A DNA stretch of 64,000 nt. Origin: Candidatus Woesearchaeota archaeon. GTDB taxonomy: Archaea; Nanobdellota; Nanobdellia; SCGC-AAA011-G17; GW2011-AR18. Where the stretch lies: positions 4,463-68,462 of the forward strand of contig CAYSFG010000035.1 in the NCBI GenBank assembly GCA_964430545.1, given 5' to 3'. The position numbers were made by a program, and so were the translations under genes. Below are positions 20,182 through 62,742 of this stretch, piece by piece; the first letter of the stretch is position 1, and each line of letters opens with the position of its first letter. The notes beneath the pieces were generated by a model that saw nothing but the letters and a program-made list of their open reading frames with translations, did not search any database and was not told where the DNA came from.

Positions 20182-22830
20182 ATGGAAAATTCTGAAATAG
20201 AAAAAAGGAAAGAGAAATTTTTAAATTATTTTAAAGGAAGATATGATTTATTACAATACTTAATATTATTTATAATATTGATATTAGGTATTTATGTAAG
20301 AATACAACCTTTAGATAAATTAATTGATCCTACAACAGGAAAATATATTACTATAGAATTGGATTCTACTTTATTTTTAAGATATGCTACTTATATTGCA
20401 GAACATGGAAAATTATTTACCCATGATGTTATGAGATATTATCCGTTAGGTAATGAAGTTTCAATTGGTGTTTTTACATCATATTTTGTAGCTTATTTAT
20501 GGAAATTTTTAAATACATTTATTCCAACTATATCAATTGAATATGTTAATAATCTTTATCCAGTAATAGCAATGGTAATAATGACTATATTCTTATTTTT
20601 ATTAATAAGAAGGTTATTTGACTGGAGAGTTGGTTTGTTAAGTTCTTTACTAATAAATGTAAATCCTGGATTTTTATTCAGAAGCTTAGGCGGAAGCACA
20701 GATCATGATATGTTAGGAATAATGTTTATAATTATGGCATTTTATTTTTATGTCACAGGATTACAAACTACTAAGATAAAAAATACTGTTATATTTGGCA
20801 TACTAACTGCTGTAATTGTTACACTTGCTTATTTAAATGGAGGATCTATACAATTTTTTTATTTTACAATAATGGCTTTTAGTTTATTAGAATTATTATT
20901 AGGAAAATTTAATAAAAAAGACTTAGGACTATTTACTACATTTGTTATTACACTTACAATATTATTATTATCTACAGGAAGAATAACATTCTCAAGTTTG
21001 GCAACATCAATAAGTACAATGCCATTATATCTTTTATTATTTGCTGGTTTAATTTATCATTATATATTTGATAAAAATGCAAAATATTTTTACTTTGTAA
21101 AGAAATATGAAAAAATATTTGATAAAGTGCCTCCAAATATACTAGCTATAATAACTGCTTTTATATTTTCATTATTATTTTTAATAATCTTCTACGGTTA
21201 TAATACAATAATCCATATTTTTTCTGGTTTATATTATCAGATATTTAAACCATTTTCTGCGACTAGATGGGTATTAACTGTTGCAGAAAATAGAAGTACC
21301 GTAATTAAAGATTGGATAGGGCAGTATGGTAAGTTTTTAATCTATACATCTGTAATAGGATCAATATTATTATTTTATGAAGCTGTGAAAAAGTTAAAAT
21401 CTTACAAAACACTTACTATTACTTATATTATTTTTATTTTTACTTATTTTATATCAAGATATGATAATTCAGGTACTTTTGCTATAACTTCAGGTCTTTC
21501 TAAATTTTTATTATTATTTTCAGTATTATTAATAATTTTTGTAATTACTTATTATTATTTTAATACCTATAATAAAGATAAGGAAGAGTTTAAAAATATT
21601 TTAGAAATAAATAAAAAATATTCATTGATATTATTTTGGTTTATAATTATGACATTTATAGCAACTACAGCTATAAGATTTTTATTTGAATTAGCACCTA
21701 TAATAGTTATATTAAGCTCGTTTTTTATAATATATTTATTTGATTTATTTATTAATAGAAAAGAAAAATTTATAAGATATAGTGGATTGATACTTCTTGC
21801 ATTAGTTTTATTTAGTCCATTTAGTTTTGCAAGAGGTATAGTTTTTGATCAATATAATGAAGTTTACAATGTTGCAAGATTTACAGGTCCTGCATATAAT
21901 CAACAATGGCAGCAAACAGGAAAATGGGTAAGGGAAAATACACCTATTAATGCAATATTTGCACACTGGTGGGATTATGGATATTGGGTACAAAGTGGTT
22001 TTGAAAGAGCAACAGTAACAGATGGTGGAAACTTTATAGGCTGGTGGAACTATTTAATGGGGAGATATGTTTTAACCTCACAAACAGATGAAGAACCTTT
22101 GAAATTTTTATATGCTCATAATGTAACTAATCTATTAATTATACCTGATGAAATAGGAAAATATCCTGCTTATTCAAGTATTGGAAGTGATCTTAATTAT
22201 GACAGGCTTTCTTATATTCCTACATTTGCTTTAGATGATAGACTAACACAAAAAACAAGAAATTCAACTGTAATATATTATACTGGAAGTTTTGGATTTG
22301 ATGAAGATTTACAATTTAATGGAAAAATATTGCCTAGAAATTCAGCGGGTGTTGCTGGAGTTATGGTTACATTAAGTAATGATGTTAATGGTCAAATAAA
22401 TGGATTAGAACAGCCTGTAGCAATAGCTGGGCATAATAATGAAAGATATAATTTAAAAATGAGTTGTTTATACTTAGAGAAACCATACTTTTTTGATAAT
22501 TATGATATAGACGCATGTTTAAGAATAATACCTACTTTTACTGATAATAATCAAGTTAATGCAATTGGAACTGGATTTTATCTATCAAAAAAAGTTTTAC
22601 ATAGTTTAGTTGGAAGATTATATATATTAAATATAAATTCTAAATATTTTGAATTAATATATGATGAAACAACAAGAGGAATGCCATTAGCTTATTATCA
22701 AGGAAGATTAATAGGACCACACAAAGTATGGAAAGTAAATTATCCTAAAGATTTTAAACTTACTGCTGAAGAATATAATTTTTACACAAGAACTGACTAT
22801 CCTGATATAAACTTAACAAAACCCGTATAA
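20182..22830 (+). CDS. aglB: archaeal oligosaccharyltransferase AglB (STT3 family)
   Basis: Diagnostic 'WWDYGYW' motif (residues about 590); N-terminal 13-TM region; 882 aa typical of AglB. Confidence 0.85.
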   Translation: MENSEIEKRKEKFLNYFKGRYDLLQYLILFIILILGIYVRIQPLDKLIDPTTGKYITIELDSTLFLRYATYIAEHGKLFTHDVMRYYPLGNEVSIGVFTSYFVAYLWKFLNTFIPTISIEYVNNLYPVIAMVIMTIFLFLLIRRLFDWRVGLLSSLLINVNPGFLFRSLGGSTDHDMLGIMFIIMAFYFYVTGLQTTKIKNTVIFGILTAVIVTLAYLNGGSIQFFYFTIMAFSLLELLLGKFNKKDLGLFTTFVITLTILLLSTGRITFSSLATSISTMPLYLLLFAGLIYHYIFDKNAKYFYFVKKYEKIFDKVPPNILAIITAFIFSLLFLIIFYGYNTIIHIFSGLYYQIFKPFSATRWVLTVAENRSTVIKDWIGQYGKFLIYTSVIGSILLFYEAVKKLKSYKTLTITYIIFIFTYFISRYDNSGTFAITSGLSKFLLLFSVLLIIFVITYYYFNTYNKDKEEFKNILEINKKYSLILFWFIIMTFIATTAIRFLFELAPIIVILSSFFIIYLFDLFINRKEKFIRYSGLILLALVLFSPFSFARGIVFDQYNEVYNVARFTGPAYNQQWQQTGKWVRENTPINAIFAHWWDYGYWVQSGFERATVTDGGNFIGWWNYLMGRYVLTSQTDEEPLKFLYAHNVTNLLIIPDEIGKYPAYSSIGSDLNYDRLSYIPTFALDDRLTQKTRNSTVIYYTGSFGFDEDLQFNGKILPRNSAGVAGVMVTLSNDVNGQINGLEQPVAIAGHNNERYNLKMSCLYLEKPYFFDNYDIDACLRIIPTFTDNNQVNAIGTGFYLSKKVLHSLVGRLYILNINSKYFELIYDETTRGMPLAYYQGRLIGPHKVWKVNYPKDFKLTAEEYNFYTRTDYPDINLTKPV

Positions 22831-22835
22831 TAAAA

Positions 22836-24320
22836 ATGGAAATAAATCTTAAAAAAAATAAATTTTTTATTATTTCTATTATTTTACTATTAATAAATTT
22901 TTTCTTTAGACTTATTAATCAATCTAAAATGCTTAAATATTTTCCAGTTGATTATAATACAGATGGCGCTTCTTATATGGCGCAGTTGTTTTTTTTAAAA
23001 TCGTGCGGATTTCATAATATTTGTAATTATTGGTATAATGGATTTGTAAATTTTTTACATAGCCCCCCTGGATGGTATGTTTTTACACTACCAATATTTA
23101 ATATTACTAAAATTGTTAATGTTGCTACTTATATCTCTATGATAATTATATTTTTATTGTCTTTTATTATAATTTATTATTGTTATGGTAAAATAAACTT
23201 TACGAAATTTGAAAGAATAGCCTTATTTATTTTCTTTTTTGGGAATGCAATTGCGGTTGGTAACTTTATAAAATTAATAAGAGTGCATGAACTATTTGCT
23301 TGGATGAATTTTTTAATATTCTTTTTTATAATATATTATTATAAAGATAAACCTATAGATAAAAGAATATATTTAATAAGTCTTGTTTATACATTTATAT
23401 TAATTTCTTATCAAAGTGTTGGAGTAATAGTTTCAATATTATTCTTATCATTATTTTTAGTGAAAAAAGGCAAAGAAAAAATTTATGTTTTATTAGCTGC
23501 TTTATTTTCTTTAATTCTAAGCGCATTTTGGTGGCTACCAGCTATATTAAGATTTAATGATGGAGGAATAGCCGCTCTTCAGCAGGGTATTTGGCTTTTA
23601 AGATTTGATAAACTTAATTTTTATACAAATATCTTTGCTACAATAATCCCTATTATATTCTTAATTACTTTTTATTTATATTATAATAAAAATAAAGATA
23701 AAAATGAATTATTATTTTACTTGCCAGTTATAGTGTTAATTTTTATATTCTTATTTAGAGTTTATCCATTTATTCCCTTCTTTGGGAATATATTCCCAGA
23801 TCCTTATTTAGTATTTTTTATTTTTTTTATATCATTTTTATTTTTTAAAATAAAATTTAGTATTAAATTATTAAAGTTATTACCTTATATTATTTTTATT
23901 ATTGTTTTAATAAGTTTAACATTTAGTGTGTTTAGAACGCCTTTATTTATTGTGCCTAATAGTTCATTAAACATAGATATCGAAAATTCATTGTCTAAAG
24001 TTAATAAATCATTTTTATTCTTTGGTGAACTTGGATCTTACATTCAAATAAAAAATATTTATTCTTATGCTCCAACAAAGTATAATATCTCTACCCCATT
24101 TGGATGGTATCCTGAAGTTAAAAATGTTGAATATTTAGATTCTTATTATAAAAATGTAAATGATAATTTTGTTAAAAAAGACTGTAAAAATTTTAAAAAA
24201 TATGTTCTTTTATTTAATGTTACAGATATTATTACAATAGATAATGACTGTGATTTTTTACTTTCTTGTGATTTTAAATTTAAACATTCTTTTAATAAAA
24301 TATGTATTTATAGTGTTTAG
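22836..24320 (+). CDS. polytopic membrane protein, possible GT-C-fold glycosyltransferase
   Basis: 494 aa, 10 or more TM helices, first loop 'VDYNTDGASY'. Starts 6 nt after aglB. Confidence 0.4.
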   Translation: MEINLKKNKFFIISIILLLINFFFRLINQSKMLKYFPVDYNTDGASYMAQLFFLKSCGFHNICNYWYNGFVNFLHSPPGWYVFTLPIFNITKIVNVATYISMIIIFLLSFIIIYYCYGKINFTKFERIALFIFFFGNAIAVGNFIKLIRVHELFAWMNFLIFFFIIYYYKDKPIDKRIYLISLVYTFILISYQSVGVIVSILFLSLFLVKKGKEKIYVLLAALFSLILSAFWWLPAILRFNDGGIAALQQGIWLLRFDKLNFYTNIFATIIPIIFLITFYLYYNKNKDKNELLFYLPVIVLIFIFLFRVYPFIPFFGNIFPDPYLVFFIFFISFLFFKIKFSIKLLKLLPYIIFIIVLISLTFSVFRTPLFIVPNSSLNIDIENSLSKVNKSFLFFGELGSYIQIKNIYSYAPTKYNISTPFGWYPEVKNVEYLDSYYKNVNDNFVKKDCKNFKKYVLLFNVTDIITIDNDCDFLLSCDFKFKHSFNKICIYSV

Positions 24321-24354: not shown

Positions 24355-25047
24355 ATGAATAAAGATCAGGATTATTTATGGGATTTAGGGGAACAAGATT
24401 TTTGGCATATGAATAAAGATAGAGTCTTATTAAAATTATTAAAAGGGAAAAATGTATTAGATGTAGGTGCAGGAACAGGTATGTTTTCTATAAAAATGAA
24501 TGATCTCGGTATGAATGTTACTTATATTGATTCTTATGATAAGTATGTTAATATCGCTAAGAAAAGGGCTGGAAATAGAAAAATAAAATTTATATGTGGA
24601 GATTTTTTAAAATATAAATTTAAGAAAAAATTTGATTGTGTAATTATAAGCGGATTTATAGAACATGTAGAAGATGATATAAGTTTGTTAAATGGAATAA
24701 ATAAATTATTAAAAAAAAATGGAAGATTAATATTATTAACTTCAGCTTATCCATGGTTATATTCTGCATTTGATAAAAGTGTGGGGCATTATAGAAGATA
24801 TACCAAAAAAGAGTTGCTTATGAAAATAGATATTACTGGTTTTAATGTAAAATTTATTAAATACTGGGATATTTTAGGATTTCCAGCTTTATTGTTGACT
24901 AAATTAACAGGAAGAATAGCATTTTCTTCTGAAGGATTAAAAAATAAAAAAATAAATAAATTATTAGATTTGTGGTTTAGAATATTTGAAAATAAAATGA
25001 TTATACCATTTGGATTAGATTTAATTTTAACAGCAGACAAAAAATGA
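24355..25047 (+). CDS. class I SAM-dependent methyltransferase
   Basis: Motif I 'VLDVGAGTGMFS'. Confidence 0.65.
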   Translation: MNKDQDYLWDLGEQDFWHMNKDRVLLKLLKGKNVLDVGAGTGMFSIKMNDLGMNVTYIDSYDKYVNIAKKRAGNRKIKFICGDFLKYKFKKKFDCVIISGFIEHVEDDISLLNGINKLLKKNGRLILLTSAYPWLYSAFDKSVGHYRRYTKKELLMKIDITGFNVKFIKYWDILGFPALLLTKLTGRIAFSSEGLKNKKINKLLDLWFRIFENKMIIPFGLDLILTADKK

Positions 25048-25868
25048 AAACACTATTATTAACAATGGACTTAGAAGAATTTGTTACACCAGCAGAAATA
25101 GGTATGAAAGTTAATAAAGATGAAATGTTTAAAATAAGTATAGAAGGATTAAAAAATTTTAAAAAAATATTAGATAAATATGAAAAATTAAAAGTTACAT
25201 TTTTTACAACATGGGAGTTTGCTGAAAAAGCTGAGAAAGAATTAAAAGAAATATTAGAAAATGGAAGGCATGAATTAGCATTGCATGGATTAGAACATAG
25301 TTTAGACTATCCTAAAATGAATGAAAAAAAATTACAAAAAGTATTGAGTAAAGCTAAAAAAAAATTAGAAAATAAGTTTAATACTAAAATAAAAGGTTTT
25401 AGAGCCCCACAGATGGGAAGTATTAAATTAAGTGTTTTAAAAAAAATAAGGATAAAATATGATAGTTCTTTACATCCTACTTATATACCTGGAAAATATA
25501 ATAATTTTTTTAAAAGTAGGAATATTTATTTAGAAAATGGAATATATGAAATACCTGTTTCAGTAACTCCATTGTTTAGATTACCATTTTCTTGGATATG
25601 GCTTAGAAATATGGGATTTACTTATGCTAAATTTTGTAGTAATTTAAATTTTATAAATTCAGATTATGTTAATATATATTTACATCCATGGGAATTTGTA
25701 AATATAAACATTGATCCTTATAATAAAAAAATATTAAAACTAATAATAAGAAAAACTGGTGATAAATATTTAAAACTAGTTGATAATCTAATAAAATGGT
25801 ATTTTAACAAGAACTTAAAATCTATGACAATAAATGAATATTTGGAAAAAAAATATGGAAATAAATAA
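25044..25868 (+). CDS. polysaccharide deacetylase-like (DUF3473/CE4-like) protein
   Basis: 'KVTFFTTWEFAEK...GRHELALHGLEHS' resembles the DUF3473/polysaccharide deacetylase family. ATGA overlap with the upstream methyltransferase. Confidence 0.5.
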   Translation: MKTLLLTMDLEEFVTPAEIGMKVNKDEMFKISIEGLKNFKKILDKYEKLKVTFFTTWEFAEKAEKELKEILENGRHELALHGLEHSLDYPKMNEKKLQKVLSKAKKKLENKFNTKIKGFRAPQMGSIKLSVLKKIRIKYDSSLHPTYIPGKYNNFFKSRNIYLENGIYEIPVSVTPLFRLPFSWIWLRNMGFTYAKFCSNLNFINSDYVNIYLHPWEFVNINIDPYNKKILKLIIRKTGDKYLKLVDNLIKWYFNKNLKSMTINEYLEKKYGNK

Positions 25869-26439
25869 ACATTTTGATGATAAATCTGAAAATTATACTA
25901 TAAATAGAAATAAAGGAATTTTGGGATTAATAGTAAAAGCAGAAAAATTAAAAGTTTTAGAATTTTTAAATATAAATAAAAATGATTTTATTTTAGATGC
26001 TGGTTGTGGAGATGGATTTTATTCTATAATAATAAAAGAAAAAGAAGCTCAGGTTTTAGGTTTAGACATTTCTAAAGATATGATTTATAGATTAAATAAA
26101 AGAGGTATAGAAGGAAAAGTTATGAATATAGAAAATTTAAATTTTAAGAAAAAATTTGATAAAATATTATGTGCAGGAGCAATGGAATTTTTAAAAAAAC
26201 CAAAAAAAGCTGTTGATTCATTTTATAATTCTCTAAAAAACAATGGTATCTTAGTAATACAATACCCTAGAAAATCATTATTTAGCTATTTATATAAATT
26301 ATATCATAAATTACATGGAATAAATATTAAATTATTTAGTAAAAAAGAATTTGAAATATTAGTTTGTGACGATTTTTATATAGAAAAAAATGAAAATGCA
26401 GGAATAATATCTGCTGTGATAAAATGTGTTAAAAAGTAA
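25834..26439 (+). CDS. class I SAM-dependent methyltransferase
   Basis: Motif I 'ILDAGCGDGFYS'. Confidence 0.65.
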   Translation: MNIWKKNMEINKHFDDKSENYTINRNKGILGLIVKAEKLKVLEFLNINKNDFILDAGCGDGFYSIIIKEKEAQVLGLDISKDMIYRLNKRGIEGKVMNIENLNFKKKFDKILCAGAMEFLKKPKKAVDSFYNSLKNNGILVIQYPRKSLFSYLYKLYHKLHGINIKLFSKKEFEILVCDDFYIEKNENAGIISAVIKCVKK

Positions 26440-26456: not shown

Positions 26457-27206
26457 TTGTTTGATAATTCTATGAAAAAACCATATTATTCAATTATAAT
26501 ACCTGCATATAACGAAGAAAAAATAATAAGTTCAACAATAAATAAAGTATATTTATTTTTAAAAAAACAAAAAGTACCATTTGAATTGATTATAACTGAT
26601 GATGGAAGCAAAGACAGCACGCTTAAAATAGCTGAAGATCTTTCTAAAAAACATAAAGAAATAAGGATTGTAAGCAATAAAATAAATCAAGGCAGAGGGG
26701 CTGCTTTAAATAATGCTTTTAAAAATTCAAAAGGAGAAGTTTTAGTTTATATAGATGCTGATTTAGCAATAGATTTAAATTTATTTCCTAGATTAATGAA
26801 AGCAATAAAAGAGCAAGGGGCTGATATAGCTGTAGGATCAAAACATTTGAAAGAATCACAAGTAGAATATCCTAAATTAAGGAGAATATTTAGCAAATGT
26901 TATGCTTTTCTTGCTTATTTATTATTAAGATCAAAAATCAAAGATTATCAATGTGGATTTAAAGCTTTTAAAAGAGAAAAAATATTACAATTATTACCAT
27001 ATTTAAAAAATAAAGGATGGGCTTGGGATACTGAAGTAATAATAAAAGCACAATGGATGGGATGGAAAGTTATAGAATTACCTGCTAAAGTAATAAATAT
27101 TTATGGAAGGGAAAGTAAAGTTAAATTGTTTAATGATGTAAAAAGAATGGGATTAGATTTATTAAATTTGTATTTTGAAAAGAAAAAATTTATGAAAAAT
27201 ATTTAA
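26457..27206 (+). CDS. GT2 polyprenol/dolichyl-phosphate glycosyltransferase (Dpm1/AglD-like)
   Basis: 'YSIIIPAYNEE', 'TDDGSKDST', 'YIDADL' (DxD), 'QCGFKAF'. Confidence 0.75.
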   Translation: MFDNSMKKPYYSIIIPAYNEEKIISSTINKVYLFLKKQKVPFELIITDDGSKDSTLKIAEDLSKKHKEIRIVSNKINQGRGAALNNAFKNSKGEVLVYIDADLAIDLNLFPRLMKAIKEQGADIAVGSKHLKESQVEYPKLRRIFSKCYAFLAYLLLRSKIKDYQCGFKAFKREKILQLLPYLKNKGWAWDTEVIIKAQWMGWKVIELPAKVINIYGRESKVKLFNDVKRMGLDLLNLYFEKKKFMKNI

Positions 27207-27233
27207 TTGATATATATTCTATAAAATATAGGT

Positions 27234-27250
27234 TATATATATATATATAT
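27234..27250. repeat. (TA)8 dinucleotide microsatellite abutting a TTTAAATA TATA-like box
   Basis: 'tatatatatatatatat' followed by 'ttaaatac'; lies 48 nt upstream of the likely TTG start (27298) of the secreted-protein gene. Confidence 0.8.
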
Positions 27251-27285
27251 TTAAATACTTAAAAAAATATAATAATATAAAAATA

Positions 27286-27996
27286 GTGGTGATTATATTG
27301 GAACATAAATATAAAATTTTAACAGGAACGATATTCTTATTTATTGGATTATCAATGTTATTTTTTGTATCAAATACAATAACAGGAAATACAGCAAGAG
27401 AATCAACAGGAAATACAATAGGAAATACAACAGGAAATACAATAGGAAATACAATACCAAGAATAATAAATGTAAGTGCATATGCTGGTTATATGGCGGA
27501 TTGTGAACCTTCAGAAACTGGTTTTATAGGTTTCCGTAGTTGTCCTAGAAGAAATGATTATACTATAAATGATAATGATTGGTTGAAATTTTATTTGAGT
27601 ACGAATATACCAATGCATTCATGCTGGATTAGTTCTTTACATGATAGATATGGAAAAACAAATAAGCCTACAGCTCTAATTACCCCCAAAATTATTATGC
27701 ATAAAATTACCTCTACTTATTTTTATGTATCAATATATTCAAATGATGGCGTTCAACTATTATTTAATCAAAACCCAATTAATCCCTATGAATATTTCCC
27801 TTTATTGCAACAATCAATTTTAAAACCTGGAAGTAAATCATGGGATACTATAGAATTTGAATGCATTTCGGCAGACTCACAAGGTCAGATAACATTACCA
27901 GTTATTTCTTATAAAAAATCAAGATCAAATCATGGTGGGTGGTTATCATTATTTTGTCCAGAAAATGGAAATAATCGTGCAGATTGTGGGAAATAA
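27286..27996 (+). CDS. secreted/surface Cys-rich protein with N-terminal signal-anchor (pilin-like class III signal?) and GNTx tandem repeats; paralog of 38164-38667
   Basis: SD GGTGAT at 27288-27293. The likely true start is TTG 27298, giving 'MEHKYKILTGTIFLFIGL...TGNTA', which aligns with 'MENKNKLYLGSVFLVLGL...TGNAA' of the paralog. Six Cys; 'NVS' and 'NTT' sequons; ends 'DCGK'. Confidence 0.55.
   Translation: MVIILEHKYKILTGTIFLFIGLSMLFFVSNTITGNTARESTGNTIGNTTGNTIGNTIPRIINVSAYAGYMADCEPSETGFIGFRSCPRRNDYTINDNDWLKFYLSTNIPMHSCWISSLHDRYGKTNKPTALITPKIIMHKITSTYFYVSIYSNDGVQLLFNQNPINPYEYFPLLQQSILKPGSKSWDTIEFECISADSQGQITLPVISYKKSRSNHGGWLSLFCPENGNNRADCGK
27385..27456 (+). repeat. in-frame 12-nt tandem repeat (ggaaatacaaya; 4 contiguous copies plus one nearby) encoding GNT[IT] repeats
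   Basis: Exact or near-exact 12-mers at 27409, 27421, 27433 and 27445, and a diverged copy at 27385. Confidence 0.75.
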
Positions 27997-28114
27997 ATTA
28001 ATTATTTTTAGTTTATAGTTAAATAAAAATAAACTTCTTTATATCTAATAATTTATACCGTTTGTTATATTTTATATTAGTAAAACATATAAAACTTAAA
28101 GAAATTATAAAACT

Positions 28115-32491: not shown

Positions 32492-32534
32492 TGGATTAAG
32501 AGCAGATAGATTAACAGAAGAATTAGTTGCAAAA

Positions 32535-38118: not shown

Positions 38119-38163
38119 TTAAATAACTATTAACTTAAAATATAAAATATAAGAGGTGATTAT

Positions 38164-55677: not shown

Positions 55678-56460
55678 ATGTTAAAATGGAATAAAAAAAT
55701 ATTTTATCTTTTAATTATAATTCTGTTAACTGTATTTATTATATATTTAATGAAAATTTTAATATTTCATGAAGTTATAATAGATAATAGTGTTGTAACT
55801 ACAAATTTAACAATGCATAAAACTACATTGAAAATAATGCCTTTAGGTGATTCTATAACTGAGGGAGACTTATATGGGGGTTATAGGGTTAATTTAAAAC
55901 AAATGATGGATAATGTTGGCTTTAATACTGATTTTGTTGGAAGAAAAACTACAAATGGAAATACTACAGGATTTATAGATATAGAACACGAAGGATATAA
56001 TAGTGCAACTATAGATACTTTGGGATATCCTTATTTAATTTCTGATGAAATAGATGAAGATATTATAGAAACATTTAAACCAAGAATTGTACTGCTTTTG
56101 ATCGGAACTAATGACTTATTTTGCCAATGTAAGAGTGAAATTCAAATAATAGATAGTTTAAGTATACTAATTAATAAAATATTAAATAAAGATGAAAAAT
56201 TGTATATTATAGTAGGAACTGTTCCCCCATTAGGTTCTTCAAGAGAATTATTAAATAATAGAGTAAATAAACTAAATTTGTTATTACCTACAATGATCTC
56301 TTCTAAAGGAAATAGGGTTTCTTTAGTTGACATTAATTTAGCTCTTAATAGATTTGTAGACTTAAGTGATGATATACATCCCAATAGAGATGGTTATAAA
56401 AAAATAGCAGAAGTTTGGTTTAGTAGAATTAATGAAATGATAAATTTAACAATTACCTAA
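55678..56460 (+). CDS. SGNH/GDSL hydrolase with N-terminal membrane anchor
   Basis: Block I 'LGDSITEG'; block V 'DDIHPN'. Confidence 0.75.
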   Translation: MLKWNKKIFYLLIIILLTVFIIYLMKILIFHEVIIDNSVVTTNLTMHKTTLKIMPLGDSITEGDLYGGYRVNLKQMMDNVGFNTDFVGRKTTNGNTTGFIDIEHEGYNSATIDTLGYPYLISDEIDEDIIETFKPRIVLLLIGTNDLFCQCKSEIQIIDSLSILINKILNKDEKLYIIVGTVPPLGSSRELLNNRVNKLNLLLPTMISSKGNRVSLVDINLALNRFVDLSDDIHPNRDGYKKIAEVWFSRINEMINLTIT

Positions 56461-56604: not shown

Positions 56605-57495
56605 ATGGCAATAAAAATATTTGTTACAGGTGCATCTGGGTATTTAGGTACTAATTTAGTAAGAAAATTAAATCAAAAAGGTTATTTCATAAAAGCACTT
56701 GTAAGAAATGTTAATAAAGCAGAAGCTTTAAAATCTAAAAATGTTAAAGTAATAATAGGGGATATAATAAATATTAACAGTTATGAAAAAGAACTAAAAG
56801 ACGTAGACGTAATATATCATTTAGCTGCAATAATAGGAAATAATAATAAAGAATTAAATTTCTTAGTACATGTTGAAGCTGTAAAAAAATTAATAGAAGC
56901 TGCAAAAAAAAATAATGTTAAAAGAATAATTTATGTAAGTACAATATCAGCATCATATTTAAAAAGAAGCCATTATGCAGAATCAAAACTACAAGCAGAA
57001 AAACTATTTTTTAATTCTGGGATACCAACAACAATAATAAGACCAAACTTAATAATTGGAAGAAAAAGCCCGCAATTAGAAAAAATAAGCACAATGGTTA
57101 AATTACCTTTAATACCTGTAGTAGGATCTGGAAAAAAACTAATACAACCAATAAATGTAGAACAATTAAGCGAAGTCTTAATAAAACTATTAGAAAATAA
57201 AAATTTTATAAACCATACAATATCAATCTCTGGATCAGAAAAAATAACATTTAATCAATTTTTAGATATAATAAGCAAAAATATAATAGGAAAAACAAAG
57301 TTTAAATTACACTTACCAATATTTGCTTGTAGTATACTAGCAACAATATTAGAAAAAGGACTAAAAGATAAAGCTCCATTAAATAAAGGACAAGTTATAT
57401 TATTAAACCAAGATTCAGTATCTTCATTTAATGATGTTAAAAAACTATTTGATCTTAAAGAAGAAAAAATAATGGATATTATAGGAGAAAAATGA
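56605..57495 (+). CDS. NAD-dependent epimerase/dehydratase (SDR) family
   Basis: 'VTGASGYLGTNL'; 'YAESK' catalytic YxxxK. Confidence 0.8.
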   Translation: MAIKIFVTGASGYLGTNLVRKLNQKGYFIKALVRNVNKAEALKSKNVKVIIGDIININSYEKELKDVDVIYHLAAIIGNNNKELNFLVHVEAVKKLIEAAKKNNVKRIIYVSTISASYLKRSHYAESKLQAEKLFFNSGIPTTIIRPNLIIGRKSPQLEKISTMVKLPLIPVVGSGKKLIQPINVEQLSEVLIKLLENKNFINHTISISGSEKITFNQFLDIISKNIIGKTKFKLHLPIFACSILATILEKGLKDKAPLNKGQVILLNQDSVSSFNDVKKLFDLKEEKIMDIIGEK

Positions 57496-58382
57496 AAATT
57501 TTACTAACAGGGGCAAATGGATTTTTAGGTAAAATAGTAACAACAAAATTAATAAATGAAGGTCATAATATAACTGCATTAGTAATACCAGAAGAAGATA
57601 CAACATATTTAGCAACATTAAAAAATGTTAATGTTTTAAGATGTGATATAACTGATTCTAATAGTATAAAAGATGTAATGAAAAAAATAGATGTAGTAAT
57701 ACACTTAGCGGCATTATTAAATAGTTCTGATGAAAACTTAAATATGAAAATAAATTATGAAGGAACAAGAAATATAGCTGATCTTGCTGAAAAAAATAAT
57801 GTTAAAAGATTTATTTTTACATCATCAATGACAGCCACATCAAATAATCCAAATGCTTATGGGAAATCAAAAAAATTAGCAGAAGAATATCTTAATACAA
57901 AAAAATTTAATACAATAATAATAAGACCAACATTATTATATGGAAAAGGAGGAGCAGCTTTTAATAAATTAAAAGACATGATAAACATCCTTCCAATATT
58001 TGTACCAGTAATAGGAAAAGGAAATTCAATAAAACAACCAATATATGTTGAAGATGCAGCTGAAATAATAAAAAAAGCAGCAACAATAGAAATTAATACA
58101 AATAAAATTTATCAAATGGGCGGACCAGAACAAATAGAATTTAAAGAATATGTGAAAAAAATATTAAAAATACAAGGTAAGAATAAAAAATTATTATATA
58201 TACCGAGATTCTTTATATGGACCATGTTGGGAATAATTGAAAAAGTAACTAAAAATCTCCCAGTAACTAGAGAAGCAATACTAGAATTAGAAACTGATAC
58301 AAAAGTAGATTTTACAATAATAGAAAATGATTTTACTATAAAATTAATAAAATTAGATGAAGGAATTAAGAAAAGTTTATAA
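57492..58382 (+). CDS. NAD-dependent epimerase/dehydratase (SDR) family
   Basis: 'LTGANGFLGKIV'; 'YGKSK'. ATGA overlap with the upstream paralog. Confidence 0.8.
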   Translation: MKILLTGANGFLGKIVTTKLINEGHNITALVIPEEDTTYLATLKNVNVLRCDITDSNSIKDVMKKIDVVIHLAALLNSSDENLNMKINYEGTRNIADLAEKNNVKRFIFTSSMTATSNNPNAYGKSKKLAEEYLNTKKFNTIIIRPTLLYGKGGAAFNKLKDMINILPIFVPVIGKGNSIKQPIYVEDAAEIIKKAATIEINTNKIYQMGGPEQIEFKEYVKKILKIQGKNKKLLYIPRFFIWTMLGIIEKVTKNLPVTREAILELETDTKVDFTIIENDFTIKLIKLDEGIKKSL

Positions 58383-60251
58383 TTATTTTTCAATAAATTT
58401 TTCATACCATAATTCAAAAGTTAACAAAGACCATAACTGTCTAGCATAAAATAAAGGTGAACTATTAAAATTCTTAATCATCTTATTAATAATATAATAA
58501 TCAAAAATACCTTGTTTATTAATATTCTTAATAGATAATTTATCTTCTATTAAAGACATTAAATCACTTTTTAACCATAAATCAATAGGAACATAAAATC
58601 TTTGTTTTTTTCTATTAATAATATCTTTAGGAAGCAGATCAGAAACAATTTTTCTTAAAATATACTTATTTTTAAAACCATTAAGTTTAAGATGATTAGG
58701 CATACTAAAAGCAAGATTAACCAATTTATAATCTAATAAAGGAACTCTAGATTCAACACCAAAAGCCATAGTCATTCTATCAGATTTAGTTAACATATTC
58801 TCAGGAAGTAATACTTTAGTCTCAAAATTAAGAATCTTATTAATATTATTATTAGCTATAAAATAATTGTTAATGTAAGATTCAGGAGGAATGATTTTTT
58901 TATTGTTTAAATAATTTTTTTGTTCATCATAATCAAAAATACTAGTAATTTCAGTATAAGCTTTAGGTAAATCATGAATAGAATCTAAAAATTTAACAGC
59001 CCTATTTTTACCTTCATTACCTAGACTAGAACTATATTTAAAAAATTTATTAAGAATAGCATTGGGTACAAGTTTAATAGCTGATTTACTAAAATTAATA
59101 GCTAAAGGAATTTTTTTAATTTTATTACCATAATGTAAGAATTTAACCTGTTCATAACCTGCTAATGTTTCATCTCCACCATCACCAGTTAAAACAACAG
59201 AAACATATTTTTTAGCGTTCTTAGAAAGAAGATAAACAGGAATCATAGCAGGATCACATAATGGTTCATCAGCATGATAAATAATATTATTAAGATCATT
59301 AATAATATCAGACTTTACAACAAATTCTTTATGATCAGTATTAAAAAAATCTGAAACTTTTTTAGCATAAGGAAGTTCATTAATTTTTTTGTGATCAAAA
59401 CCAACTGAGAAAGTCTTAATATCATTAACTTTTAATTTATTCATCATAGCAACAACAGAACTAGAATCAATACCTCCACTAAGATAAACACCAAGAGAAA
59501 CATCACTCATTAATCTAGAACTAACAGATTCAGTATAAAACTTTTTATATTTTTTTAAATAAAAACTATCATTATAAAACTTATTAGAAAAATTGATGTT
59601 ATAATAATTGTTTTTCTTTAATTTTTTAGTTTTTAAATCAAATATTAAATATTCACCAGGAAGCATCCTAAAAATATTATTAAAAATAGTGTTTGAAGTG
59701 AAAACAAACCTATAAGCAAGATATTGTGATAAAGCATCATTATTAATAATCCTATTAATTGTATTATCTTCAAGAATTGACTTAATTTCAGAAGCAAAAA
59801 TAAACTTATTATTATCATAATAATAAAATAAAGGCTTAACACCAATATGATCCCTAGCTAATAAAAAGATATTTTTATTTATATCATATAAACAAAAAGC
59901 AAAATCCCCATTTAATTTTTTTAAACATTCTACTCCATATTCTTTGTAAGCATAAATTATAGTTTCAGTATCAGTTTCAGACTTAAAATTATATTTTTTT
60001 TCTAATTCTCTTCTTAATTCCCTATAATTATATATCTCTCCATTAAAAGTAATCCAAATAGTTTCACTATCATCAGACATAGGTTGTTTACCTTTAATAC
60101 TTAAATCAATTATTGCTAATCTTCTATGCCCTAAAGAAACATTTTTATCTGTGTAATAACCAAAACCATCAGGACCCCTATGGATCAATTTATCAGACAT
60201 TCTCCTAATCAAAACTTTATCAAACCAATTAAAACCAACAATACCGCACAT
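58383..60251 (-). CDS. asnB: asparagine synthase (glutamine-hydrolysing)-family amidotransferase
   Basis: 'MCGIVGFN', 'LGHRRLAIIDL', PP-loop 'SGGIDSS'; 622 aa. Confidence 0.85.
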   Translation of the reverse strand: MCGIVGFNWFDKVLIRRMSDKLIHRGPDGFGYYTDKNVSLGHRRLAIIDLSIKGKQPMSDDSETIWITFNGEIYNYRELRRELEKKYNFKSETDTETIIYAYKEYGVECLKKLNGDFAFCLYDINKNIFLLARDHIGVKPLFYYYDNNKFIFASEIKSILEDNTINRIINNDALSQYLAYRFVFTSNTIFNNIFRMLPGEYLIFDLKTKKLKKNNYYNINFSNKFYNDSFYLKKYKKFYTESVSSRLMSDVSLGVYLSGGIDSSSVVAMMNKLKVNDIKTFSVGFDHKKINELPYAKKVSDFFNTDHKEFVVKSDIINDLNNIIYHADEPLCDPAMIPVYLLSKNAKKYVSVVLTGDGGDETLAGYEQVKFLHYGNKIKKIPLAINFSKSAIKLVPNAILNKFFKYSSSLGNEGKNRAVKFLDSIHDLPKAYTEITSIFDYDEQKNYLNNKKIIPPESYINNYFIANNNINKILNFETKVLLPENMLTKSDRMTMAFGVESRVPLLDYKLVNLAFSMPNHLKLNGFKNKYILRKIVSDLLPKDIINRKKQRFYVPIDLWLKSDLMSLIEDKLSIKNINKQGIFDYYIINKMIKNFNSSPLFYARQLWSLLTFELWYEKFIEK

Positions 60252-60286: not shown

Positions 60287-61213
60287 CTATAAAATGTTTT
60301 CTATACTATAAGTTGTTTTATTATGTACTTTATGATATATCCTAACAAGAACTTCACCTAAAAACCCAAGAATTATAGACAATGTACCAGTAATTATTAA
60401 TATTGCCGCTCCTAATGCTACTGGCCCTACAGGCACTGTTTTGGTTATTATTAATTTTATTAGTTGTTCAATTATTAAAATTATGGCTATGATATATTGA
60501 AATATACCAATAAGACCGAAAAAATGCAAAGGTCTGGTAGAATAATCAGCCCAAAACTTTAAGAAAATCATATCAAGAAAACCATGTAATAACCTTTTGG
60601 CGTTGTATTTAGTCTTACCATATTTACGTTCACGATGGTTTACCTGAACTTCAGTAACTTTAAAACCTTTTAATTTTATAATTGTTGTAATATATCTATG
60701 CATTTCTCCATATAATTCAATATCTTTAATAGATTCATTAGTATAAGCTTTCAAGGTACAACCAGAATCATGTATAGTCTCATTAAACAATAACCTTCTT
60801 AGTTTATTAGCAATCTTAGAATTAATTTTTTTACCAAATGAGTCATTTCTATTATATCTCCATCCAGAAACTACATCATAACCAGATTTAATCTTTTCAA
60901 TTAATTTAGGAATATCCCTAGGATCATTTTGTAAATCACTATCTATTGTTATTATTATATCTCCTTTAGAATTTTTAAAACCTGCATCAAGAGCAGCTGT
61001 CTGACCAAAATTTTTTCTAAATTTTATTATTTTTACGTATTTATCTTTACTCTTAATTCTTATTAATTCTTCAAAACTTTTGTCAGTACTACCATCATCA
61101 ATAAAAATAATCTCATAATTAATATCTAATTTTGATAAAACACTCTTTAATTCAGAATATAAAATAGAAATATTTTTTTCTTCATTGTATACTGGCACTA
61201 CAATTGATAACAT
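60287..61213 (-). CDS. GT2 polyprenol-phosphate glycosyltransferase with C-terminal GtrA-like TM region (DPM/AglK-like)
   Basis: 'LSIVVPVYNEEKNI', 'FIDDGSTDKS', 'TIDSDLQNDP'; two or three C-terminal TM helices. Confidence 0.8.
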   Translation of the reverse strand: MLSIVVPVYNEEKNISILYSELKSVLSKLDINYEIIFIDDGSTDKSFEELIRIKSKDKYVKIIKFRKNFGQTAALDAGFKNSKGDIIITIDSDLQNDPRDIPKLIEKIKSGYDVVSGWRYNRNDSFGKKINSKIANKLRRLLFNETIHDSGCTLKAYTNESIKDIELYGEMHRYITTIIKLKGFKVTEVQVNHRERKYGKTKYNAKRLLHGFLDMIFLKFWADYSTRPLHFFGLIGIFQYIIAIILIIEQLIKLIITKTVPVGPVALGAAILIITGTLSIILGFLGEVLVRIYHKVHNKTTYSIENIL

Positions 61214-61255: not shown

Positions 61256-62434
61256 TTATTTAGAATTATAATTAATAGCCTCATTAACATTAGATATTGA
61301 TAAATCAGGAAGCATTCCATTTTTATACAATGGATGAGTTTCAATAGGAATAGGAACTTTATCAAATTTAAAAATAGGATTCATATAATTACAAACAAAT
61401 TCTCTACTATAAGCAGCATAACACATCTTGTGACGTTTAGTAAATAAAGGACTATTGCAAGCTTTCTCCCATGCTTGTCTTAATGACATATTTTGAACAT
61501 TACCTAAAGATAAAGGAATAAAAAAACAAGGAAACATTTCACCAGTAACATTAACACCAATATAAGCATTACCAGCAGGACAACCAAAACCAAAATAATT
61601 ATTAGTCAAATGAGTGGAAACATAGACACTTCTTCTAGCTATTTTATTTAATTTTTTAACATCTTCATTATTTAATAAAATATCTTGTTTAGTAGAAGCA
61701 TAACCTGTAGGGATAATAGGATTAACAGTTATGTATATTTTCTCTTTTTCAGCAAAATTAATCATCTTATCAAAAGTACCATCACTAAAATCTTTATGAG
61801 AAACCACACTAGCCATAGAAAAGTCTAAACCATACTTTTTACAATAGTCTTTAACTTTGAAAGCAGTTTCATATGCACCTTTAATTTTTAATATTGAATC
61901 ATGCTTTTCTGCTTCTAAAGAATGAATTGAAATAGTAATATTGTTTAAACCTAAATCAGCAAGCTCCTTTACTTTAGTTTCATTTAATAAAGTTCCATTA
62001 GTAGCTAAAATACTATAAATACCGTGATGTTTAGCTCTCTTAACAAGTTCATTAATCCCTTTGTATAACATAGGTTCACCACCGATCAAACCTATAACAG
62101 GAACATTTAATTCTGCACATTGATCAATAATATCTAAATAATTTTCCAGAGAAAGAATTCCTACTTTTTTTGTGAATAAACCATTAGAACAAAAATCACA
62201 TCTAGCATTACAAGCAAGAGTTACAAATATTTCTACAAATCTTATTTGTTCTTTTTTAAGAAAATTAACCCTAAAATAACCTTTTACAAATCTTTTAAAA
62301 ATTTTAAAGTTAGGAATTAGTTTTAAAACAAATAAAGCAGTATAATATTTTGTAATAAGATTATCAAAAAAACTTAACTTTTCCTCTTTCTTATTTGATA
62401 AAGATCCTTTTTGACAATTTGAACAATCATCCAT
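61256..62434 (-). CDS. radical SAM protein with Cys-rich N- and C-terminal extensions
   Basis: 'TLACNARCDFC' (CxxxCxxC); an N-terminal 'CSNC' pair and additional C-terminal Cys residues (twitch/SPASM-like). Confidence 0.75.
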   Translation of the reverse strand: MDDCSNCQKGSLSNKKEEKLSFFDNLITKYYTALFVLKLIPNFKIFKRFVKGYFRVNFLKKEQIRFVEIFVTLACNARCDFCSNGLFTKKVGILSLENYLDIIDQCAELNVPVIGLIGGEPMLYKGINELVKRAKHHGIYSILATNGTLLNETKVKELADLGLNNITISIHSLEAEKHDSILKIKGAYETAFKVKDYCKKYGLDFSMASVVSHKDFSDGTFDKMINFAEKEKIYITVNPIIPTGYASTKQDILLNNEDVKKLNKIARRSVYVSTHLTNNYFGFGCPAGNAYIGVNVTGEMFPCFFIPLSLGNVQNMSLRQAWEKACNSPLFTKRHKMCYAAYSREFVCNYMNPIFKFDKVPIPIETHPLYKNGMLPDLSISNVNEAINYNSK

Positions 62435-62523
62435 TTTTTTAATAAAATTGTACTATTATTTAAATATTTTGAATTTTAAAAATAAAACATTAAATTTATA
62501 TATTTTAGATAAAATAAAATTGT

Positions 62524-62742
62524 ATGAAAATAATACATGAAAGAGAAAAATGTATAGGATGTGGAATGTGTGTTGAACATGCGCCAACATTTTGGAAAAT
62601 TTCTGAAGATGGAAAAGCAATGTTAATAGGATCTAAAGAAAGTAACAGACTATTTAGCAAGAATATACAAGATAAAGATTTAACTTCTAATCAAAATGCT
62701 GTTAATGATTGTCCTGTAAACGTGATAAAGATAAAAAAATAA
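62524..62742 (+). CDS. small ferredoxin-like 4Fe-4S protein
   Basis: 'CIGCGMCVEHAP' ... 'CPV'; 72 aa; divergent from the radical SAM gene. Confidence 0.55.
   Translation: MKIIHEREKCIGCGMCVEHAPTFWKISEDGKAMLIGSKESNRLFSKNIQDKDLTSNQNAVNDCPVNVIKIKK

Follow-up and report, generated by a model that had tools for sequence, protein, structure and literature searches.

A gene cluster for sugar attachment at the cell surface, about 44 kb long, runs from position 20182 to the end of the window (the whole 64,000-nt stretch of DNA analysed, to which all coordinates refer) and continues beyond it. Its genes are tightly packed and lie where a first-pass annotation had placed them; the GC content is even along the cluster, about 0.19-0.26, and the base composition gives no sign of a foreign origin. 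Judging from sequence, the host is a Woesearchaeota-type DPANN archaeon, and the sources of the homologues are named Woesearchaeota or Nanoarchaeia.

Glycosyltransferases of the cluster

Seven membrane glycosyltransferases of the GT-C type, AglB and six others, are predicted from family or fold to act outside the cell, and each has an acidic residue soon after TM1. The 882-aa oligosaccharyltransferase AglB/STT3 (20182..22830, +; Pfam STT3 81.5 bits, STT3-PglB_core) contains the motif WWDYGYW. Three further proteins pass the Pfam gathering score, all for PMT_2: 28115..29653 (+, 37.6 bits, with an hhalign probability of 98.7 % against the PMT_2 profile), 45134..46627 (-, 74.4 bits), the last gene of an operon of the order GT4-GT4-GT2-GT-C, and 51232..52905 (+, 59.7 bits, also Glyco_transf_22). 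In the latter two the acidic residue is part of a DE pair in the first loop (FDEADY and SDEGES, respectively).

For 22836..24320 (+, about 495 aa, a DPANN family) and 29643..31613 (-, a rare YfhO/PTPS_related-like family) the sequence itself has no match in Pfam, and the assignment comes from AlphaFold2 models with pLDDT values of 96.2 and 93.2, respectively. In Foldseek searches with these models, only GT-C structures reached probability 1.0 (STT3/PglB/AglB, AftA, AftD, ArnT) and transporters stayed below 0.2; the best matches were GT-C throughout for 22836, and so were the best 21 (21/21) for 29643. By these high-confidence models, both have a GT-C fold. The family of 22836 has 110 homologue clusters, part of them with PF10131, and P37 and D43 are invariant in it, D43 being located in the first outer loop and present in 98 of 98 sequences. 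The protein at 29643, whose C-terminal part comprises a beta-sandwich domain and a TM helix, has 244 relatives among 1.84 billion representatives; PF10131 matches 25 and YfhO 8 of 53 homologues, over which D36 is at least 90 % conserved.

The gene at 62775..64000 (+), open at the window end, encodes about 10 TM segments and scores 21 bits against PMT_2, below the cut-off of 26.1. It aligns in register with three GT-C profiles at hhalign probabilities of 76, 80 and 96 %, compared with less than 5 % for the Wzx, GPT and UbiA controls, and is a probable, not proven, GT-C. Pfam, AlphaFold2 with Foldseek, and hhalign together bear out the AglB and six GT-C-like proteins of the first-pass annotation, 62775 only as probable, and family and fold analysis left all in the GT-C superfamily and turned none into a transporter.

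Pfam also confirms three proposed GT4 enzymes (GT-B fold 41806..42909, +, Glycos_transf_1 145.8 bits; 47525..48640, -; 48637..49791, -), an AglH/WecA-type polyprenyl-phosphate HexNAc-1-phosphate transferase, or GPT (38837..39835, +; Glycos_transf_4, PF00953, 118 bits), which scores far under the MraY cut-offs, and a candidate Wzx/MATE-like flippase with about 10 TM segments (39823..41094, +; Polysacc_synt, Polysacc_synt_3, MatE).

All six GT2 enzymes are present, but only about four of them look like the polyprenol-phosphate sugar synthases that they had all been called. The one at 60287..61213 (-) is the only full-length enzyme of the ArnC/PgfS type among them, of ArnC/GtrB/PgfS type by NCBIfam (ArnC 8-311/316, E 1.6e-57; PgfS 3-304/308), with TM helices at its C-terminus. 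Three look DPM1/PpgS/AglJ-like: 26457..27206 (+; Pfam Glycos_transf_2 119.5 bits), a candidate lipid-phosphate-sugar synthase also resembling Dol-P-hexose transferases (NCBIfam PpgS 4-213/226, DPhHxTase 3-185/213), 41060..41818 (+; Pfam 96.2 bits), AglJ/PpgS-like along most of its length (AglJ 2-227/293), and 50532..51254 (+), with a PgfS/ArnC/AglJ-like catalytic domain. By their sequences the remaining two are generic GT2 enzymes and were overcalled, namely 42906..43715 (+; Pfam 103.6 bits), with NCBIfam matches confined to its N-terminal half, and 46662..47528 (-; Glyco_tranf_2_3 in Pfam, PgaC/NodC-like in NCBIfam). Several GT2 genes neighbour GT-C genes: 26457 with 28115, 46662 with 45134, 50532 overlapping 51232, and 60287 near 62775.

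Tailoring enzymes and small proteins

Five class I SAM methyltransferases lie in the cluster: 24355..25047 (+), 25834..26439 (+), 33130..33852 (-) and 33920..34717 (-), with Methyltransf_11 scores of 63.9, 59, 66.3 and 79.7 bits, and 54913-55623. Six had been counted in this range; the further one, at 17293, is located upstream. The fifth overlaps a Trm112-like zinc ribbon ORF (54614-54955) by 43 nt, and the pair (54614..55623, +) is possibly a single frameshifted gene; the sequence has poly-A runs there. Three radical SAM genes are present as proposed, one of them frameshifted. A frameshift within an A10 run close to 32466 breaks this B12-binding enzyme (31670..33080, +) into ORFs 31670-32491 (Pfam B12-binding and the N-terminal part of Radical_SAM) and 32535-33080 (the C-terminal part), and its orthologue in the relative locus L088 is intact (469 aa). 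The other two are radical SAM/SPASM enzymes at 44011..45132 (+; Pfam Radical_SAM, SPASM), for which no NCBIfam family reaches its cut-off, and at 61256..62434 (-; Pfam and NCBIfam).

The other tailoring enzymes were all recovered in place. The CE4 polysaccharide deacetylase (25044..25868, +; Polysacc_deac_1; NCBIfam XrtA-system deacetylase-like 68.9 bits) has no detectable TM segment and is predicted to be cytoplasmic, and the SGNH/GDSL esterase (55678..56460, +) is predicted to sit outside the cell by an N-terminal TM anchor. A NodU/CmcH-type carbamoyltransferase (52960..54639, +; Carbam_trans_N, Carbam_trans_C; NodU-like 125 bits) is followed further on by two extended SDRs with TGxxGxxG and YxxxK motifs (56605..57495 and 57492..58382, both +) and an AsnB-type glutamine amidotransferase (58383..60251, -; Asn_synthase 288 bits; TIGR01536 481 bits, above its cut-off).

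Two small secreted proteins, Cys-rich and anchored at the N-terminus, had been put forward as glycoprotein substrates. The first (27286..27996, +) has one TM segment, 6 Cys and a 12-nt tandem repeat (D1) encoding TGNT units; the second (38164..38667, +) is its paralogue at the N-terminus (BLASTP E 2.5e-4), and the upstream DNA is alike as well (repeat D3, 27225-27274 / 38093-38142). Each has two N-X-S/T sequons; at 0.85 and 1.2 per 100 aa, where the window averages 0.71, they are not enriched in sequons, and the proposed role is not supported. A 214-aa protein (49851..50495, +) matched no family in Pfam or NCBIfam, and TM prediction gave no segment for it.

The UbiA-family module

The operon at 34828-38035 encodes a FAD oxidoreductase, a UbiA-family protein and a DUF362 protein, none of which was mentioned in the first-pass annotation. 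The soluble oxidoreductase (34828..36120, +; amine-oxidase/phytoene-desaturase fold, PRK07233 type; Pfam Amino_oxidase 84.3 bits) scores 247.2 bits against NCBIfam NF005560 (cut-off 252), and its gene overlaps that of the UbiA-family protein (36117..36971, +) by 4 nt. The latter resembles DPPR synthase, a polyprenyl-phosphate 5-phosphoribosyltransferase: it matches NF008977 over its full length with 227.6 bits, under the equivalog cut-off of 234, and ordinary prenyltransferase families in NCBIfam with at most 55 bits. The convergent gene for the soluble DUF362 protein (36968..38035, -; Pfam 87.1 bits) overlaps its end. I know of no activity for DUF362, which shares a Pfam clan with LarA. The clan membership is given in PMC11770544.

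PDB 8j8j, the M. tuberculosis decaprenyl-phosphate phosphoribosyltransferase Rv3806c, is matched over the full length (E 4e-33). Nine of 11 functional residues of Rv3806c, with roles described in PMC10994848, are retained (R22/K28/N73/D77/K87/R90/Y138/K143/K191, corresponding to R11/K17/N58/D62/K72/R75/Y123/K128/K176) and are also invariant across 38 archaeal homologues; Tyr157 is replaced by Phe, and Lys208 aligns one residue off.

Relatives of this protein occur in at least 534 genomes. In 82 loci, some partial or redundant (L006 = L046), genes within 4 kb encode DUF362 (31), GT-C (28), FAD oxidoreductase (26), SDR (17), PAP2 (13) and AglB (8), with at least one of these in 66, all lower bounds given detection by single-sequence phmmer; the 29643 family was found in 0 of 82. 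The oxidoreductase orthologues (58-73 % identity) adjoin UbiA in their 26 loci, accompanied by DUF362 alone in 16, SDR alone in 8, both in 0 and neither in 2, and the DUF362 orthologues are 69-80 % identical. The order GT2, GT-C, UbiA, PAP2 recurs, 9 of the 13 PAP2-bearing loci have a GT-C as well, and the UbiA-PAP2 adjacency resembles the Rv3806c/Rv3807c pair of M. tuberculosis. The window has no gene for a PAP2 or HAD phosphatase, so that nothing in it is a candidate for turning Dol-P-ribose-5-P into Dol-P-ribose. The SDRs of the window are 20 kb from the UbiA gene and only about 33 % identical to those flanking the oxidoreductase and UbiA elsewhere. The probable product of the module is a five-carbon sugar donor linked to a lipid.

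Relatives and a proposed assembly route

AglB adjoins SpoIIM and a 22836-family GT-C in four relatives. SpoIIM, AglB, 22836-family GT-C, CE4, methyltransferase and GT2 form a core common to L003, L087 and L088, joined in some relatives by PMT_2, and variable modules come after it. L003 lacks the window's 29643-38667 and 27286, L088 has the radical SAM, FAD oxidoreductase, UbiA and DUF362 block at the same position, and L087 differs again; the earlier description of a variable island therefore agrees with gene content. In L003 and L088 a PMT_2 GT-C directly follows a 26457-type GT2, and both have 28115 orthologues (47 % in L003); the 50532 orthologue in L006 (51.5 %) adjoins a FAD oxidoreductase and a PMT_2 gene. 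The GT-C set had been called unusually large. L004, a 21-kb locus that also has AglB next to a 22836-family GT-C, encodes about five GT-C besides AglB, and other relatives have similar clusters, so that many GT-C genes are the norm in this lineage rather than an exception.

From knowledge of these families, I infer the substrates, products and order of steps as follows. The GPT would begin a glycan on dolichyl phosphate at the cytoplasmic face, and GT4 and GT2 enzymes would lengthen it; methyltransferases, CE4 deacetylase, AsnB amidotransferase, carbamoyltransferase, SDRs and radical SAM enzymes would tailor its sugars, the Wzx-like protein would flip it, and AglB would transfer it to Asn residues in surface proteins. 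Alongside this, small GT2 enzymes would make dolichyl-phosphate monosaccharides (60287 firmly; 26457, 41060 and 50532 probably), and the UbiA-family enzyme would convert PRPP to dolichyl-phospho-ribose-5-phosphate. The genes for the FAD oxidoreductase and DUF362 lie on either side of the UbiA gene and are strongly conserved alongside it. The likeliest role for the two proteins, a guess from gene position, would be to alter the pentose on its lipid carrier at the cytoplasmic face; this would be an epimerisation of the oxidation/reduction type, DprE1/DprE2-like in its working, although the oxidoreductase belongs to a different fold family than DprE1. Once flipped, the lipid-phosphate sugars would serve the six non-STT3 GT-C enzymes outside the cell for adding single residues to a glycan, protein or lipid. 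As a counterpoint to this model, there is one flippase candidate for many lipid-linked species.

The earlier observation is confirmed overall and its interpretation partly supported; the proposal that glycans are elaborated extracellularly by more than a single N-glycan pathway is strengthened by the GT2/GT-C neighbours and by a second, UbiA-type class of lipid-donor synthase. A main cell-surface glycan assembly locus, with a conserved core and exchangeable modules, is probably the best explanation of the gene content, the synteny and co-occurrence, and the families and folds assigned by computation. The likeness of the UbiA-family protein and its neighbours over the 82 loci suggest, rather than demonstrate, that archaea have lipid-linked pentofuranose donors; to my knowledge, a route to lipid-linked five-carbon sugar donors has so far been studied only in bacteria.

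Glycosyltransferases and tailoring genes of the cluster

From 20182 to the end of the window about 38 genes are densely packed, and the GC content, which lies between 0.19 and 0.27 across the window, shows no compositional break at the cluster. Pfam scans were run on every open reading frame of the window. The gene at 20182 encodes an AglB, as had been read from the sequence: the STT3 domain (PF02516) scores 81.5 bits against a Pfam cut-off of 24.5, the motif HWWDYGYW is found in the translation, and STT3-PglB_core is matched at 595-634. It is not, however, a member of the archaeosortase-A-associated AglB subfamily TIGR04154 (106 bits, cut-off 450). The same scans recover the three GT4 enzymes, the PF00953 GPT (38837) and the Wzx/MATE-like protein (39823) listed in the first-pass annotation, together with its carbamoyltransferase, AsnB, two SDRs (both of the extended type), SGNH esterase (anchored in the membrane by its N-terminus) and CE4 deacetylase. 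The three radical SAM proteins are present as well, but the B12-binding one is not intact, as its gene at 31670-33080 is split by a +/-1 frameshift in an A10 run (32456-32481). Its orthologue in the related locus L088 is intact at 469 aa, and the frameshift may stem from an error in the assembly, mark a pseudogene or act as a slippage switch. Instead of six SAM methyltransferases, five of class I lie within the cluster and a sixth is found upstream of it, at 17293. A Trm112-like zinc-ribbon reading frame overlaps a methyltransferase reading frame by 43 nt in another frame amid poly-A runs (54614-55623), and this appears to be another homopolymer frameshift, within what is usually a single fused gene.

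The two small proteins 27286 and 38164 had been put forward as glycoprotein substrates. Judged by sequence they are secreted or anchored and Cys-rich, but with two sequons apiece they are not convincing as reporter substrates. Like 49851, they lack a Pfam match, and NCBIfam yielded no family for any of these three reading frames. The DNA upstream of the two genes is alike (27225-27274 and 38093-38142, 78 % over 50 nt), as are the N-termini of their products, and in 27286 five 12-nt tandem repeats (27381-27464) encode TGNT-type units.

Beside AglB, six further GT-C proteins had been proposed; five of these are now assigned by Pfam or by a fold model and the last one, 62775, is a probable member. 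The PMT_2 domain is found in 28115, 45134 and 51232 (37.6, 74.4 and 59.7 bits, respectively; gathering score 26.1). For 22836 and 29643 neither Pfam nor a sequence search of the PDB gave a useful match (MJ1213, a hit for 22836 at E 0.023, was rejected as spurious), and no NCBIfam family was obtained for 22836, 51232 or 62775. The 22836 family comprises at least 110 clusters of proteins of approximately 495 aa from Woesearchaeota- or Nanoarchaeia-type archaea, and some members carry PF10131. Exact-sequence look-ups placed the 22836 protein itself on two 5-kb Logan contigs only, and gave no contig for AglB or 29643. The 29643 family is rarer: 244 relatives were found in 1.84 billion representatives; PF10131 is matched by 25 of 53 members and YfhO by 8 of 53. 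AlphaFold2 models from these alignments reached a pLDDT of 96.2 (22836) and 93.2 (29643), and for both models the Foldseek matches with a probability of 1.0 are exclusively GT-C proteins (STT3, PglB, AglB, AftA, AftD, ArnT), whereas transporters in the same lists stay at or below 0.16, with a TM-score of about 0.1. An acidic residue is located just past the first transmembrane helix, D43 being invariant in the 22836 family and D36 at least 90 % conserved in the 29643 family. Judged by these models, both proteins have the GT-C fold. The model of 29643 further shows a C-terminal beta-sandwich (residues ~440-630) followed by a final transmembrane helix, and this domain could be a carbohydrate-binding module as in EmbC, AftD or GT136.

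The protein 62775 is cut by the end of the window, and its PMT_2 score of 21 bits is under the cut-off of 26.1. When aligned with hhalign to three independent GT-C profiles it gave probabilities of 76, 80 and 96 %, over an equivalent region and in register, against less than 5 % for the controls (Wzx, GPT and UbiA). It went undetected with a small PMT_2 profile made in-house, and a metagenome scan with the truncated protein returned no relatives.

All six GT2 genes of the first-pass annotation are present by Pfam, but not all are of the polyprenol-phosphate type, as 42906 and 46662 are generic GT2 enzymes. Among them 60287, with a GT2 catalytic domain and C-terminal transmembrane helices (segments at 230-285), aligns with NCBIfam ArnC over 8-311 of 316 positions (E 1.6e-57) and with PgfS over 3-304 of 308, both under the equivalog cut-offs. 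It is ArnC/GtrB-type at the family level only, with a donor-synthase activity that is predicted. In 26457, 41060 and 50532 most of the PpgS, DPhHxTase (Dol-P-hexose transferase) and AglJ models is covered, at 32-65 bits and far under the cut-offs. GT2 and GT-C genes are adjacent or overlapping in three places (50532-51232, 46662-45134 and 26457-28115), and GT2 genes next to GT-C genes form the pattern known from ArnC/ArnT or GtrB/GtrC.

A conserved core and variable content in relatives

In three related loci (L003, L087 and L088) the window's housekeeping flank is retained, with genes for an AMP-phosphorylase-like protein, AI-2E, a Dph6 fusion, PRPP synthase, DUF4346 and SpoIIM. The core is shared too, and consists of AglB, the 22836-family GT-C, CE4, methyltransferases and GT2, and in some loci also of PMT_2; the pair of AglB and 22836-family GT-C also occurs in the more distant genome L004. 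After the core the content differs. L003 continues with PMT_2 and then GPT, Wzx and GT2, and is without the window's 29643-38667 and 27286; L088 carries radical SAM, FAD oxidoreductase, UbiA and DUF362 genes at the corresponding place, and L087 has other genes. This combination of a shared core and differing post-core content indicates a mosaic, strain-variable cluster, as the first-pass annotation had guessed. I had considered 29643-38667 as a single insertion unique to the window, which the radical SAM-FAD oxidoreductase-UbiA-DUF362 block at the same place in L088 contradicts. The flanks of the variable segment contain no tRNA genes and no convincing mobile-element repeats. The GT-C set, previously called unusually large, is normal in its richness for this lineage, as L004 holds AglB and about five further GT-C genes in 21 kb, and the cluster alone is the expected kind of locus here.

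The PMT_2 gene 28115 and the FAD oxidoreductase/UbiA operon have in common a 48-nt direct repeat (28075-28122 and 34788-34835, 88 % identical) that covers their upstream DNA and start codon; it may act as a common promoter or be the trace of a recombination that links them. Outside the cluster, the fusion of an AsnB-like amidotransferase to diphthamide synthase (Dph6) at 13090-15159 is kept in L003 and L087. An intein that includes a LAGLIDADG homing-endonuclease domain is found in the MoxR-type AAA ATPase at 7398-9722, which belongs to a BatA/VWA/DUF58 cluster (1993-10583), and the start of the window (267-950) encodes an AbiEii/DUF6036-type, toxin-antitoxin-like nucleotidyltransferase.

The UbiA-family protein and its neighbours

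The Pfam scans also detected three genes that were absent from the first-pass annotation: a FAD oxidoreductase (34828), a UbiA-family protein (36117) and a DUF362 protein (36968). Against NF008977, the decaprenyl-phosphate phosphoribosyltransferase model, 36117 scores 227.6 bits, just under the cut-off of 234, and is aligned over 2-288 of 297 positions. Its residues 7-276 match the structure of Mycobacterium tuberculosis Rv3806c (8j8j, 18-293) with E 4e-33. In Rv3806c, mutagenesis (PMC10994848) identified R22, K28, N73, D77, K87, R90, Y138, K143, Y157, K191 and K208 as binding Mg, the diphosphate of PRPP and the phosphate of the acceptor. Nine of these 11 functional residues are identical in 36117 and invariant in 38 archaeal homologues; the exceptions in 36117 are Y157, replaced by Phe, and K208, displaced by one residue.

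At least 534 species-representative genomes contain relatives of 36117; the 80 best are without exception Woesearchaeota- or Nanoarchaeia-type MAGs, and PGAP already names several orthologues 'decaprenyl-phosphate phosphoribosyltransferase'. A literature search found no paper on a DPPR synthase or on the module in Archaea or DPANN. A methanogen as the host of the window, at first considered for the low GC and DUF4346, was discarded when the source names of homologues pointed to Woesearchaeota and Nanoarchaeia. Many MAG records (L013, L015, L016 and others) are titled 'uncultured Methanosarcinales archaeon' but contain loci 50-57 % identical to Woesearchaeota-type genes, and these titles are probably taxonomic mislabels.

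Reading frames were called in 82 loci around UbiA homologues and searched with the proteins of the window. Within 4 kb of UbiA, DUF362 was found in 31 loci, GT-C in 28, FAD oxidoreductase in 26, SDR in 17, PAP2 in 13 and AglB in 8. The gene order GT2, GT-C, UbiA, PAP2 is recurrent, and 9 of the 13 PAP2 loci also hold a GT-C. Among the loci with FAD oxidoreductase, 16 have DUF362 only, 8 have SDR only, two have neither and none has both. This mutual exclusion beside FAD oxidoreductase and UbiA suggests, at the level of gene content, that DUF362 and SDR are alternative second components. The window's own SDR pair was considered as orthologous to those SDRs and discarded, the identity being only about 33 %.

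Both 34828 and 36968 are soluble proteins, and their orthologues are 58-80 % identical, above the 48 % of AglB in the closest relative. The fold of 34828 is that of amine oxidases and phytoene desaturases (Amino_oxidase/PRK07233 type), and no FAD_binding_4 (DprE1-type) protein is present in the window. A sequence search of the PDB gave nothing useful for DUF362, which is grouped in one Pfam clan with the racemase domain of LarA (PMC11770544). The Pfam scans found no phosphatase gene or domain in the window.

Proposed pathways, alternatives and meaning

What the analysis shows are the gene families, folds, synteny and co-occurrence of the locus. It is inferred that a cytoplasmic Dol-PP-glycan route leads through GPT, the GT4 and GT2 enzymes, tailoring and Wzx to AglB, and that several Dol-P-monosaccharide routes, from GT2 to GT-C, and one Dol-P-pentose route, from UbiA to GT-C, run parallel to it. 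More speculatively, the FAD enzyme and DUF362 (SDRs elsewhere) would remodel the lipid-linked pentose by analogy with DprE1/DprE2. As a tentative proposal, which I consider possible, Woesearchaeota-type DPANN archaea would make a dolichyl-phospho-pentofuranose by means of the UbiA-family protein, remodel it with the FAD enzyme and either DUF362 (LarA clan) or extended SDRs, as a non-orthologous replacement of DprE1/DprE2, and add it by GT-C enzymes to N-glycans or other surface molecules.

Alternatively, the module could belong to isoprenoid or lipid metabolism and just happen to lie amid glycosylation genes, with 36117 transferring prenyl rather than phosphoribose; models would be the haloarchaeal bacterioruberin pair (a CrtD-type desaturase and the UbiA-family elongase LyeJ) or a quinone or ether-lipid prenyltransferase. 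The FAD enzyme has a suitable fold and weak matches to HpnE (69 bits), CrtD and CrtI, but those to CrtD and CrtI are confined to the FAD-binding N-terminus. Likewise, 36117 belongs to the prenyltransferase superfamily (Pfam UbiA, 93.9 bits) and falls slightly below the NCBIfam cut-off, yet the best ordinary prenyltransferase family in NCBIfam reaches at most 55 bits, against 227.6 for DPPR synthase, and the next PDB match after Rv3806c is an ordinary UbiA at E 5.5e-4. Most residues shared with Rv3806c bind diphosphate and Mg, which users of prenyl diphosphates need too. However, K176-R177 of 36117 aligns with K191, the lysine of Rv3806c that binds the phosphate of the acceptor, and the sequence of 36117 shows no second DxxxD motif. 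The neighbours in the 82 loci are GT-C, PAP2, GT2, AglB and SDR genes and not isoprenoid enzymes. On balance I regard an isoprenoid pathway as unlikely.

Another possibility is that all genes act in building a single elaborate N-glycan, with the additional GT-C proteins as accessory subunits of the oligosaccharyltransferase or as redundant paralogues. A single GPT, a single Wzx, a 22836-family GT-C adjoining AglB in five of five loci examined, and the top Foldseek ranks of STT3, PglB and AglB for 22836 and 29643 would all fit. Those TM-scores to STT3 are about 0.5, however, and no better than to AftA, AftD or ArnT; the STT3 domain and WWDYG are found in 20182 only, and the other GT-C proteins are without a C-terminal STT3 core, matching instead PMT_2, PTPS_related and YfhO, which are families of lipid-P-monosaccharide users. 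The GT-C genes pair with GT2 genes as in ArnC-ArnT and GtrB-GtrC, and module content differs between relatives, as would befit separable functions. A single N-glycan is improbable as the whole explanation. That some or all of the GT-C-like proteins are transporters or other polytopic proteins is hardly credible: 22836, 29643 and 62775 do fail the Pfam gathering scores, and 62775 is truncated and had no homologues in its metagenome scan, but the exclusive GT-C matches of both models, the conserved acidic residue of the first loop and the hhalign result for 62775 (76-96 % against less than 5 %) oppose it. Neither family nor fold analysis reassigned a GT-C protein to transporters, the outcome that the first-pass annotation had named as refuting it, and this explanation is largely refuted for six of the seven.

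Among described systems, the cluster has the general design of archaeal agl clusters, as in Haloferax volcanii with AglB, the Dol-P-sugar GT2 enzymes AglJ and AglD and the outside-acting mannosyltransferase AglS, and in Methanococcus (PMC11407970, PMC2952790). AglB is likewise grouped here with GPT, GT2, GT4, a flippase-like protein and sugar-tailoring enzymes, and by analogy the GT2 enzymes would charge dolichyl phosphate with single sugars to be added outside the cell. In contrast to agl clusters with their one or two GT-C genes, the window has seven, one of them probable; a conserved, uncharacterised GT-C of the 22836 family accompanies its AglB, a putative phosphoribosyltransferase module of UbiA type occurs in it, and the host is a DPANN archaeon, a group for which a literature search found no described glycan pathway. 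The pentofuranose side chains of Citrobacter youngae O1/O2 depend on a PPPRS-phosphatase fusion, a MATE flippase, a GT136 GT-C and optionally an SDR epimerase (PMC11127046). The window similarly has a putative UbiA-family polyprenyl-phosphate phosphoribosyltransferase among GT-C genes, a MATE/Wzx-like transporter 2.9 kb from 36117, and extended SDRs (TGxxGxxG, YxxxK) within the cluster; unlike that system it is archaeal and presumably dolichol-based, lacks the fused HAD phosphatase (relatives have a separate PAP2 gene), and has FAD oxidoreductase and DUF362 as conserved partners, which are absent from that system.

The mycobacterial decaprenyl-phospho-arabinose pathway uses Rv3806c, the PAP2 protein Rv3807c, DprE1/DprE2 and the Emb/Aft GT-C enzymes (PMC10994848). 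Here 36117 matches Rv3806c over its full length, relatives have PAP2 directly after UbiA as in Rv3806c-Rv3807c, GT-C genes are neighbours with AftA and AftD among the structural matches, and a FAD enzyme with an SDR-type partner recurs beside UbiA. However, DprE1 has the vanillyl-alcohol-oxidase fold and the FAD enzyme of the window that of amine oxidases, its partner is a DUF362 protein or else an extended SDR, whereas DprE2 is a classical SDR, arabinose as the product is without sequence evidence, and the acceptors are certainly not arabinogalactan. The module differs from the bacterial systems in domain of life, redox partners and phosphatase organisation. Two-gene systems for lipid-P-sugars are ArnC/ArnT, GtrB/GtrC, CsbB/YfhO and Ppm1/Pmt. 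The end-to-end alignment of 60287 with ArnC and PgfS and the YfhO matches among relatives of 29643 recall ArnC/ArnT and CsbB/YfhO, but in the window several GT2/GT-C pairs occur in one locus, together with AglB, and a flippase of the GtrA type was not seen.

Attachment to other cells is the way of life of DPANN archaea and is presumably mediated by their surfaces; their glycans are almost uncharacterised. The locus provides a parts list: AglB in a conserved pairing with a new GT-C family, candidate donor synthases that are paired with a GT-C in several places, and a putative phosphoribosyltransferase module that is widespread. Lipid-linked pentofuranose chemistry is known from bacterial O antigens and from the cell walls of mycobacteria, in which it serves as a drug target. 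The proposal would assign roles to the FAD oxidoreductase of PRK07233 type and to DUF362, both uncharacterised but highly conserved. Should the module act as proposed, glycosylation with lipid-linked pentofuranose would extend to the Archaea; it would then be the first pathway of pentofuranosylation in that domain and give DUF362 a first function.
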